Sequence record: OR846218.1
Strand: one strand, 5' to 3'
Length of the DNA stretch: 1,192 nucleotides
Origin: a phage
The first letter of the stretch is position 1. Every line of letters begins with the position of its first letter. The notes beneath the pieces were generated by a model. It had not been told where the DNA came from. It searched no databases and was given only the letters and a program-made list of their open reading frames with translations. The translations under genes were made by a program, and so were the position numbers. Below are positions 1 through 1,192 of the stretch, in pieces.

Positions 1-77
1 AAATCTCCCGGAATAAGATTACACATCTTAGCTACAATATGAACTAACGTAGCATATGATGCAATATTAAATGGAAG
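1..77 (-). CDS. td: thymidylate synthase, exon 2 (5' portion only; CDS continues past window start)
   Basis: Minus-strand codons from 77 downward read CTT CCA TTT AAT ATT GCA TCA TAT GCT ACG TTA GTT CAT ATT GTA GCT AAG ATG TGT AAT CTT ATT CCG GGA GAT = LPFNIASYATLVHIVAKMCNLIPGD. This matches the conserved thymidylate synthase segment (E. coli ThyA ...LGLPFNIASYALLVHMMAQ...). The frame is continuous with exon 1 once 78..1093 is removed. No ORF-track entry because the fragment is short and lacks a start. Confidence 0.86.
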
Positions 78-224
78 CACTATGTTCAGATAAGGTCGTT
101 AATCTTACCCCGGAATTATATCCAGCTGCATGTCACCATGCAGATCAGACTATATCTCCAACTTGTTAAAGCAAGTTGTCTATCGTTTCGAGTCACTTGA
201 CCCTACTCCCCAAAGGGATAGTCG
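78..224 (-). ncRNA. 3' ribozyme segment of the group I intron (P6 3' strands, P7-P9 region, terminal G)
   Basis: Minus strand CGACTATCCCTTTGGGGAGTAGGGTCAAGTGACTCGAAACGATAGACAACTTGCTTTAACAAGTTGGAGATATAGTCTGATCTGCATGGTGACATGCAGCTGGATATAATTCCGGGGTAAGATTAACGACCTTATCTGAACATAGTG. It contains a 7-bp hairpin CAACTTG/CAAGTTG (159..178) and a 7-bp hairpin CTGCATG/CATGCAG with a GUGA tetraloop (126..143). It ends in G at position 78 immediately before exon 2. Confidence 0.8.
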
Positions 225-962
225 TTAGGCATTTATGTAGAACCAATTCCATTTATCAGATTTTACACGATAAGTAACTAATCCAGACGAAATTTTAAAA
301 TGTCTAGCTGCATCTGCTGCACAATCAAAAATAACCCCATCACATGAAATCTTTTTAATATTACTAGGCTTTTTACCTTTCATCTTTTCTGATATTTTAG
401 ATTTAGTTATGTCTGAATGCTTATGATTAAAGAATGAATTATTTTCACCTGAACGATTTCTGCATTTACTACAAGTATAAGCAGAAGTTTGTATGCGAAC
501 ACCGCACTTACAAAACTTATGGGTTTCTGGATTCCAACGCCCGTTTTTACTTCCGGGTTTACTGTAAAGAGCTTTCCGACCATCAGGTCCAAGTTTAAGC
601 ATCTTAGCTTTAACAGTTTCAGAACGTTTCTTAATAATTTCTTCTTTTAATGGATGCGTAGAACATGTATCACCAAACGTTGCATCAGCAATATTGTATC
701 CATTAATTTTAGAATTAAGCTCTTTAATCCAAAAATTTTCTCGTTCAATAATCAAATCTTTCTCATATGGAATTTCTTCCAAAATAGAACATTCAAACAC
801 ATTACCATGTTTGTTAAAAGACCTCTGAAGCTTTATAGAAGAATGGCATCCTTTTTCTAAATCTTTAAAATGCCTCTTCCATCTCTTTTCAAAATCTTTA
901 GCACTTCCTACATATACTTTATTGTTTAAAGTATTTTTAATCTGATAAATTCCGCTTTTCAT
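225..962 (-). CDS. I-TevI: Intron-encoded GIY-YIG homing endonuclease I-TevI (245 aa)
   Basis: ORF-track entry 225..962 (-), ATG at 962..960, TAA at 227..225. Protein starts MKSGIYQIKNTLNNKVYVGS (GIY at 4-6, YVG at 17-19) and has R27, E75 and N90 in the expected catalytic positions. A Cys4 zinc finger lies at C151/C153/C164/C167 (FCKCGVRIQTSAYTCSKC), followed by a C-terminal DNA-binding region. As far as I can recall, this matches phage T4 I-TevI over its full length. A GAGG Shine-Dalgarno lies 5 nt upstream of the ATG. Confidence 0.97.
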   Translation of the reverse strand: MKSGIYQIKNTLNNKVYVGSAKDFEKRWKRHFKDLEKGCHSSIKLQRSFNKHGNVFECSILEEIPYEKDLIIERENFWIKELNSKINGYNIADATFGDTCSTHPLKEEIIKKRSETVKAKMLKLGPDGRKALYSKPGSKNGRWNPETHKFCKCGVRIQTSAYTCSKCRNRSGENNSFFNHKHSDITKSKISEKMKGKKPSNIKKISCDGVIFDCAADAARHFKISSGLVTYRVKSDKWNWFYINA

Positions 963-990
963 AAATACCTCTTTAAATATAGAAGTATTT
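963..990 (-). promoter_or_regulatory. I-TevI translation-initiation region: Shine-Dalgarno (GAGG, 971..968) sequestered in a 10-bp hairpin
   Basis: Minus strand 990..963 is AAATACTTCT ATATTTAA AGAGGTATTT, followed by ATG. The two arms pair over 10 bp (9 Watson-Crick plus one U.G) around an 8-nt loop, burying the SD. This agrees with the published model in which I-TevI is translated only from late transcripts that start inside the intron and lack the 5' arm. Confidence 0.55.
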
Positions 991-1000
991 ATTAAAGGGC
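984..1000 (-). promoter_or_regulatory. T4 late-promoter-like element (AATAAATA, 993..986) and overlapping I-TevI operator-like sequence
   Basis: Minus strand 1000..984 is GCCCTTTAATAAATACT. AATAAATA is one mismatch from the T4 late promoter consensus TATAAATA. A start about 6-8 nt downstream would fall inside the hairpin, removing its 5' arm. The same stretch (CCCTTTAATA) resembles the exon-2 I-TevI binding sequence (CCATTTAATA, 74..65), as expected for the published autorepressor operator. Confidence 0.4.
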
Positions 1001-1093
1001 AGTCCTACAATTTAGCACGGGATTGTCTACTAGAGAGGTTCCCCGTTTAGATAGATTACAAGTATAAGTCACCTTATACTCAGGCCTCAATTA

Positions 1094-1192
1094 ACCCAAG
1101 AAAACATCTACTGATCGTTGATACCACTGCAAATCCAAATAGCCATTACGCACATTAAACTGATAGAACATATGACAAGGCGGTAATGCCAT
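1094..1192 (-). CDS. td: thymidylate synthase, exon 1 (3' portion only; CDS continues past window end)
   Basis: Minus strand from 1192 reads 33 in-frame codons: [37 protein letters not shown] holds the thymidylate synthase active-site cysteine (codon TGT at 1177..1175), and the segment aligns with E. coli ThyA DMALAPCHAFFQFYV...LYQRSCDVFLG. The exon ends at a codon boundary at 1094 and is followed immediately by intron TAA. Confidence 0.9.

Follow-up and report, generated by a model that had tools for sequence, protein, structure and literature searches.

The 1,192-nt stretch of DNA analysed here (the window) very probably represents an ordinary natural form of the td locus with its mobile I-TevI intron, from a T4-like (Tequatrovirus) phage; the T4 reference is the atypical sequence at the 3' splice junction, and the one unusual base of the window, a G at position 80, preserves a pairing. 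The biology of the locus is ordinary and already known, and alleles of this kind have already been deposited. The td intron, its homing by I-TevI, the co-conversion of flanking exons and the P9.0/P10 rules are all textbook matter.

The minus strand of the window carries, in the order of a T4-like phage, exon 1 of td (thymidylate synthase), a group I intron with I-TevI and exon 2; all gene and intron elements given below lie on this strand. Exon 1 is represented by its last 99 nt (1094..1192, 33 aa), 98 of which are identical to T4 td, the sole difference, at window 1115 (-22, CGC>CGA), being synonymous. The intron comprises 1016 nt (78..1093), with boundaries that restore the thymidylate synthase reading frame, and was found to differ from the intron of the T4 record NC_000866.4 by three substitutions and one indel. 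An intact open reading frame in the P6 loop (225..962) encodes the 245-aa GIY-YIG homing endonuclease I-TevI, whose protein sequence is identical to that of T4 I-TevI; the one difference within the ORF (window 831) is synonymous. Exon 2 contributes its first 77 nt (1..77) and departs from T4, always synonymously, at five positions: window 75 (+3), 72 (+6), 60 (+18), 9 (+69) and 6 (+72). With the terminal guanosine (omega G) of the 3' splice site at window 78, the junction restores ...FLG/LPFNIASYA, and the joined exons, ...DVFLG/LPFNIASYATLV (the slash marking the splice junction here and below), are identical to T4 thymidylate synthase.

At the 5' splice site, the exon-1 strand of P1 (UUGGGU, 1094..1099) pairs with the internal guide sequence GCCUGA, the 3' strand of P1 (intron nt 9-14, 1080..1085), with the U(-1).G9 wobble at the splice site itself. 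Intron nucleotides 1-16 read UAAUUGAGGCCUGAGU, and the GAG at nt 6-8 (1086..1088), directly 5' of the guide, is the intron strand of P10. Its exon strand consists of the exon-2 bases +1..+3 (CUU, 75..77), where window 75 (+3) is a T and T4 has an A, with pairs C+1-G8, U+2-A7 and U+3.G6. The P9 hairpin CUGCAUG-GUGA-CAUGCAG (126..143) was located by an Rfam match and local folding.

A megablast search against 50,697 phage records returned 197 that cover most of the window, all of them from T4-like phages, the best being 99.9% identical. The Rfam model RF00028 matched positions 126-356 with E = 3.2e-9 and 42.5 bits, a score under the gathering value of 50 because the ORF splits the core and the 5' part of the model was aligned into the ORF. 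The catalytic core (P3-P8, the G-binding site in P7, and P9) is kept, as judged by near-identity to the self-splicing T4 td intron, and the window intron agrees with a putatively self-splicing group I intron of the T4 td type.

A match to snoR66 (E = 0.32) and the short plus-strand ORFs of the window were dismissed as chance. One 32-aa plus-strand ORF (71..169), antisense to the 3' end of the intron, corresponds to the hypothetical protein a48_71 annotated in phage a48; it is almost certainly an artefact of annotation.

When the window was aligned to T4 NC_000866.4, 10 differences were observed in 1193 columns. The minus-strand junction reads ACATAGTG/CTTCCATTTAATATTGCATCATATG in the window and ACATAATG/CTACCGTTTAATATTGCGTCATATG in T4, with an intron A>G change at window 80 and three exon-2 changes, A>T at 75 (+3), G>A at 72 (+6) and G>A at 60 (+18). 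The T4 junction, which the initial annotation had quoted, proved exact against NC_000866.4, and the alignment confirmed its main observation: the window is not identical to T4 across the junction, all four differences exist, and the three in the exon are third-position and synonymous, leaving LPFNIASYA... unchanged. Two of its positions need correction, since the 33-nt string assigned to 83..53 truly spans 85..53, and the intron change placed 3 nt before the terminal G lies only 2 nt before it (omega G at window 78), being the third-from-last base of the intron.

Four of the 10 differences fall within 33 of the 1192 nt (binomial P about 1e-4), and exon 2 carries 5 differences in 77 nt versus 4 in 1016 for the intron (Fisher P = 1.5e-4). 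The clustering at the junction is therefore not due to chance with respect to T4, yet it depends on T4 being taken as the reference: against Yersinia phage PYPS2T, the nearest relative compared in full, the window shows a single difference in 1192 nt, at window 80.

The same caution applies to an apparent 1-nt deletion in the intron at window ~1002 (intron nt ~92, in the I-TevI operator/late-promoter region), where NC_000866.4 has an extra T, reading GGACTTGCCC with an intron of 1017 nt. The extra T is absent from the original T4 record, M12742, which reads GGACTGCCC (1016 nt) together with the window and every other full-length allele examined, so that the gap is a discrepancy between T4 records and not a feature of the phage.

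The distribution of the exon-2 bases among phages was evaluated with 34-nt queries, designed so that all variable sites fall within any possible 28-nt seed and a match denotes the exact haplotype. As counts of records, which include RefSeq/GenBank duplicates and laboratory strains and are not independent isolates, the window haplotype T-A-A at +3/+6/+18 was found next to the intron junction in 107 cases, A-A-A in 29, A-G-A in 14 and the T4 haplotype A-G-G in 16, all of the latter being T4 strains, RB55 or RB59. The combinations T-A-G and A-A-G occurred in 0 records each among the 50,697 phage records, and T with G at +3/+6 was seen only in three distant phages (Melville, Ursula and ABTNLPp2), which have an intron that is different upstream. 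A 46-nt degenerate junction pattern gave no match in IMG/VR, and a metagenome scan returned one junction, of the common type with A at window 80; the population counts thus rest on the isolate-phage collection.

The window bases also occur in phages that lack the intron. The td genes of the intron-less phages T2, PE37 and KIT06 read CTT CCA TTT AAT ATT GCA as in the window, with which they agree over the initial 27 nt of exon 2, T-A-A included; over all 77 nt, the exon-2 sequence of the window recurs unchanged in PYPS2T, a48, Shinka and the intron-less PE37. Among records without the intron junction, about 95-97 match the first 35-37 exon-2 bases of the window exactly, and at most 2 match those of T4. 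Since T-A-A is both the commonest haplotype and present in intron-less alleles, the T4 haplotype A-G-G is the atypical one and the window bases are not new. The comparison of td across phages that had been suggested thus upheld the differences as real, and the idea that they are derived in the window failed, as T2, PE37 and KIT06 carry T-A-A.

Moving away from the intron, the exon-2 haplotypes form the nested series A-G-G, A-G-A, A-A-A and T-A-A, which would fit either graded co-conversion or successive changes in the lineage of T4. The recognition site of I-TevI is 38 bp long; cleavage, which requires CXXXG, takes place 23 and 25 nt upstream of the point where the intron inserts, and the DNA-binding domain covers 20 bp centred on that point (PMC2988022). 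Homing of td is documented to include co-conversion of the exons on either side (PMC2988022). The enzyme persists on exon II, and conversion is biased to exon I (PMC2988022; PMC3984707 in general terms). Because the enzyme cuts exon 1 at 23/25 nt upstream and remains bound on the exon-2 side, conversion runs chiefly into exon 1, and exon-2 bases of the recipient can persist as far as the site of insertion. In exon 2, bases of the recipient type do extend to +3. The nested haplotypes could then be the outcome of co-conversion tracts of variable length from a T4-like donor, although stepwise mutation in the T4 lineage would equally give the series. The window itself lacks donor (T4-type) markers in exon 2, being of the intron-less type T-A-A from +3 outward; hence, if co-conversion acted, what the window shows is the absence of T4-type co-converted markers.

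Stepwise mutation toward T4 (+3 T>A, then +6 A>G, then +18 A>G), with no gene conversion involved, is an alternative of some probability, though less likely than not. A perfectly nested set is what a tree yields, and a four-gamete test on 10 full-length alleles was free of conflict; A-G-G is confined to T4 and near-identical siblings, and three sites would fall in the order of their distance with a 1-in-6 chance. That this order does match the distance from the intron nevertheless speaks for conversion, as does the shuffling of the markers -22, -19, +28 and +69 relative to +3/+6. Moreover, once the ORF-less intron alleles are added, the four-gamete test returns conflicts, between intron nt 949 and +3/+6 and between +3/+6 and +28. 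On these mixed results, exchange of sequence near the td junction is likely, whereas the direction of any gene conversion at td is what we infer, and the donor-to-recipient reading is not claimed as proven. The intron is nearly invariant between phages because of its spread by I-TevI-driven homing, and the exons carry the ordinary polymorphism of a host gene; such a contrast is what one expects of a homing element.

The end of exon 1 was then compared between alleles with and without the intron. On the guide-pairing strand it reads TTC TTG GGT in 16/16 intron-containing alleles examined, and TTT CTT GGT or TTC CTC GGT, encoding the same amino acids, in intron-less ones, which would mismatch the guide sequence at -4. 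The exon bases that pair in P1 therefore appear, from these alleles, to travel with the intron. The motif CAACG (1116..1120), which follows the CNNNG rule for I-TevI cleavage of an intron-less allele (PMC2988022), occupies -27..-23, at the required distance of 23-27 nt upstream of the insertion, both in the window and in T2, PE37 and KIT06, which lack the intron. Directly 3' of this motif, position -22 (window 1115, an Arg third base) is A, C or T according to the allele, and -19 (window 1112) is also variable among td alleles; the variants found at the two positions in intron-containing alleles each match a different intron-less type (T2-, PE37- or KIT06-like).

Of the three exon-2 positions, +3 and +6 belong to the 20 bp primarily bound by I-TevI, and +18 is outside them. 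The operator within the intron is bound by I-TevI with an affinity equal to that for the homing site (PMC2988022), and in our alignment its bases equivalent to +3/+6 match neither the T4 homing site nor the natural ones. Identity between operator and homing site amounted to 13-15/20 depending on the allele, versus the published 15/20, so this alignment is not an exact reproduction. It suggests that +3 and +6 may not be discriminating for I-TevI.

The U at +3 had also been proposed to extend P10 to 3 bp (C-G8, U-A7, U.G6). The geometry of this proposal is sound, and the benefit is not borne out. In the SIBR-Cas study (PMC8565351), which placed the ORF-less T4 td intron in lacZ and not in its native td context, replacement of the wild-type A at +296, described as a 'mismatch', by T (wobble) lowered reporter output by 8% and replacement by C (pair) by 29%. 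Position +296 should correspond to exon-2 +3 opposite G6, because the numbering starts at intron nt 1 (the -7:+15 pair matches G15) and because A is the only base of CUACCG whose partner could be G. As output falls with either the wobble or the full pair, a third P10 pair appears to give no gain in this reporter, and it is optional. At this position T4 has a G6 x A+3 mismatch, PD112 a U6 x U+3 mismatch and the td intron L048 a Watson-Crick U6-A+3 pair. Window 1088 (intron nt 6) is thus U instead of G in PD112 and in the divergent L048. In the Tetrahymena system, P9.0 and P10 are reported to be partly redundant (PMC11417360).

These data bear on the suggestion that the exon-2 bases were made at the junction by co-conversion into the window phage, and perhaps kept since U+3 lengthens P10 and aids splicing, which we judge to be very improbable. 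Exon co-conversion is indeed documented for td homing, U+3.G6 is geometrically possible, and L048 offers a Watson-Crick version of the same contact. T-A-A is however present in intron-less alleles, where selection on P10 is impossible, and this largely refutes the proposal; in addition, T-A-A is the commonest haplotype, the apparent +3 wobble and the full pair both reduced output of the T4 td reporter, and T4 and PD112 are mismatched at this very position. The original attribution of the changes to co-conversion or to divergence in a related phage holds in general terms, and only the notion that they arose at this junction has to be abandoned. We therefore retain the reading of the exon-2 bases as a widespread natural haplotype from which T4 departs.

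The only unusual base of the window is the G at position 80, which the initial annotation had placed one nucleotide away and had not connected with P9.0. This G was found in 1 of 186 phage records containing the 3' end of the intron (query from P9.2 to +2), namely Escherichia phage a48 (OQ067375), which also provided the only exact match to an 80-nt junction query. Phage a48 differs from the window by a single base at window 136, where a private G>A change in the P9 loop turns the GNRA-type tetraloop GUGA into AUGA.

The partner of this base was investigated by covariation on 86 IMG/VR loci that share a 31-nt J8/7-P7-P9 core and lie in many different genes, corresponding to 59 distinct introns. 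The omega G was defined as the earliest G located 3 nt or more beyond the conserved GAACA tail, a rule that is blind to the partner bases and assigns the site by sequence, not by experiment. The base following GUCUG (N, window 145) is Watson-Crick complementary to omega-1 in 36/59 introns, versus 22.6 expected, and the next one (N2, window 144) to omega-2 in 48/59, versus 32.3 expected; in both cases 0 of 10,000 shuffles reached the observed value. Compensatory classes were observed for the inner pair (N = A with U; N = G with C) and for the outer one (N2 = U with A; N2 = A with U in 6/6; N2 = G with C or U), and introns with N2 = C have tails ending in G-U-G. This covariation points to a td-family P9.0 formed by the J7/9 dinucleotide A-U (intron nt 949-950, 144..145) as 5' strand and by omega-2 and omega-1 (G-U, 79..80), which include the rare A>G change at window 80, as 3' strand. 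Such a helix matches the definition of P9.0 in group I introns (PMC10020454), and in the literature searched we found no structure, mutational test or direct description of the td P9.0 itself.

According to this assignment, the window would have an inner A145-U79 and an outer U144.G80 pair, the common type an inner A-U and an outer U-A, and T4 an inner C x U mismatch with an outer A-U. Window 145 is a C in T4, G2540, ECML-134 and PD112 and an A in most td introns, and with C x U at the inner pair the model intron, T4 td, would have the weaker P9.0. The A>G change at window 80, opposite a conserved U, would convert an A-U pair into a G.U wobble and so keep the pairing, and local folding of the 3' region with A or G at this position differed by 0.3 kcal/mol. 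Given the full inner A-U pair formed by A145 and a P10 that may reach 3 bp, splicing should still take place at the authentic 3' site and is expected to be unaffected by the G at window 80.

Local folding of window 53..85 also predicted a weak hairpin of marginal energy that joins the 3' splice site to exon-2 positions +16..+25, the bases from omega-2 to +1 pairing with +16..+19. These include the polymorphic +18, whose A pairs with the omega-1 U; the T4 G would form a wobble.

A sequencing or assembly error at window 80, the true allele being of the PYPS2T type, has little probability in our judgement. The rarity of the G, in 1 of 186 records, and the A in the single metagenome match would be in keeping with an error, but the independently deposited a48 has the same G together with a further private change at 136, and the change is a transition that preserves pairing. 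The series from the PYPS2T type through the window to a48 is a simple mutational path, which argues against a sequencing error.

The G at omega-2 might otherwise alter function, either as a competing terminal G located 2 nt upstream of the authentic one or by shifting the balance between P9.0 and P10; this we consider slightly less probable still. Related introns usually splice at the first G after the GAACA tail, and P9.0 and P10 are recognised determinants of the second-step site (PMC11417360, PMC10020454), so that some mis-splicing at the upstream G may be possible. Use of the alternative site UAG/UG/CUU would add two bases to the message, with a frameshift, a stop after 12 codons and a truncated thymidylate synthase. 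On the other hand, the authentic site is supported by both P9.0 and P10, and the upstream one would have neither, the bases concerned facing each other as A x A and U x U in P9.0 and as U.G and G x A in P10; among relatives, those with C at N2 naturally end in G-U-G and L050 ends in AGUG with N2 = U, and the variant persists in two sequences. Equally doubtful is the more specific proposal that the omega-2 G is a natural splicing-fidelity variant, which would be tolerated only in combination with A145 and the 3-bp P10 provided by U+3; if true, the competing splice site would yield td mRNA with its frame shifted by +2, and wild phages would display epistasis between P9.0 and P10. The G at window 80 is best regarded as a pairing-preserving substitution in P9.0.

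The base at window 80 has a bearing on annotation as well. In most phages the last intron bases (window 78..80) are AUG, in frame with exon 2, and annotation pipelines use this triplet as the start of a separate 'thymidylate synthase' CDS, as in PYPS2T (locus 3113-3427). In the window the triplet is GUG, and the a48 annotation starts its exon-2 CDS 51 nt later.

The exon haplotype of the window is already present in more than 100 deposited phage genomes and is of little importance in itself. What matters is that the T4 reference is atypical at this junction, at +3/+6/+18, at the inner P9.0 partner and in the 1-nt discrepancy between records, and therefore differences 'from T4' are not to be taken as derived changes. 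Furthermore, the natural targets of I-TevI differ at +3, +6 and the last codons of exon 1 from the intron-deleted T4 homing site employed in the laboratory, which bears on carrying I-TevI specificity data over to wild phages. The G.U variant of P9.0, as a naturally occurring allele, would lend itself to a modest experiment on splicing fidelity.

Natural ORF-less td introns occur in wild phages, with deletions in L075, L076, L077 and L097. Phages Shinka, C2-3, PYps55T, MLP2 and others have a 320-nt intron lacking nt 104-799 (window 295..990), with exons 100% identical to those of the window; PD112 and CE1 have a 262-nt intron lacking nt 94-847 (window 247..1000); FL18 and G28 have a 445-nt intron lacking nt 222-791 (window 303..872), in which a 55-aa remnant of I-TevI is annotated as 'homing endonuclease'. 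The 31-nt core GATATAGTCTG-NN-CTGCATGGTGACATGCAG, covering J8/7, the P7 3' strand and P9, occurs exactly in at least 86 uncultivated viral contigs of IMG/VR (L003-L072, L080-L095), in introns that interrupt many different host genes and have very different peripheral helices. Judged by this shared core, these introns are a large family of td-like phage introns.

Among known systems, the T4 td intron (NC_000866.4; original record M12742) shares with the window the gene, the insertion site, the intron, P1, the guide sequence, the omega G and the I-TevI protein, and it differs in having C instead of A at window 145, A instead of G at omega-2 and A-G-G instead of T-A-A, besides differences at +69, +72 and -22. 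By nucleotide identity, the closest relatives of the window allele are Yersinia phage PYPS2T (MH809535) and Escherichia phage a48 (OQ067375), each identical at 1191 of 1192 positions and alike in exon haplotype; the single difference is an A at window 80 in PYPS2T and an A at window 136 in a48, which shares the omega-2 G. The natural I-TevI targets T2, PE37 and KIT06, which lack the intron, share T-A-A in exon 2 and differ in the last codons of exon 1. Finally, in the Tetrahymena intron (PMC10020454, PMC11417360) a 2-bp P9.0 is formed by the bases 5' of the omega G with single-stranded bases beside P7, and P10 is formed by the start of exon 2 with the bases 5' of the P1 guide, as in the window; for the td family, P9.0 is deduced here from covariation.
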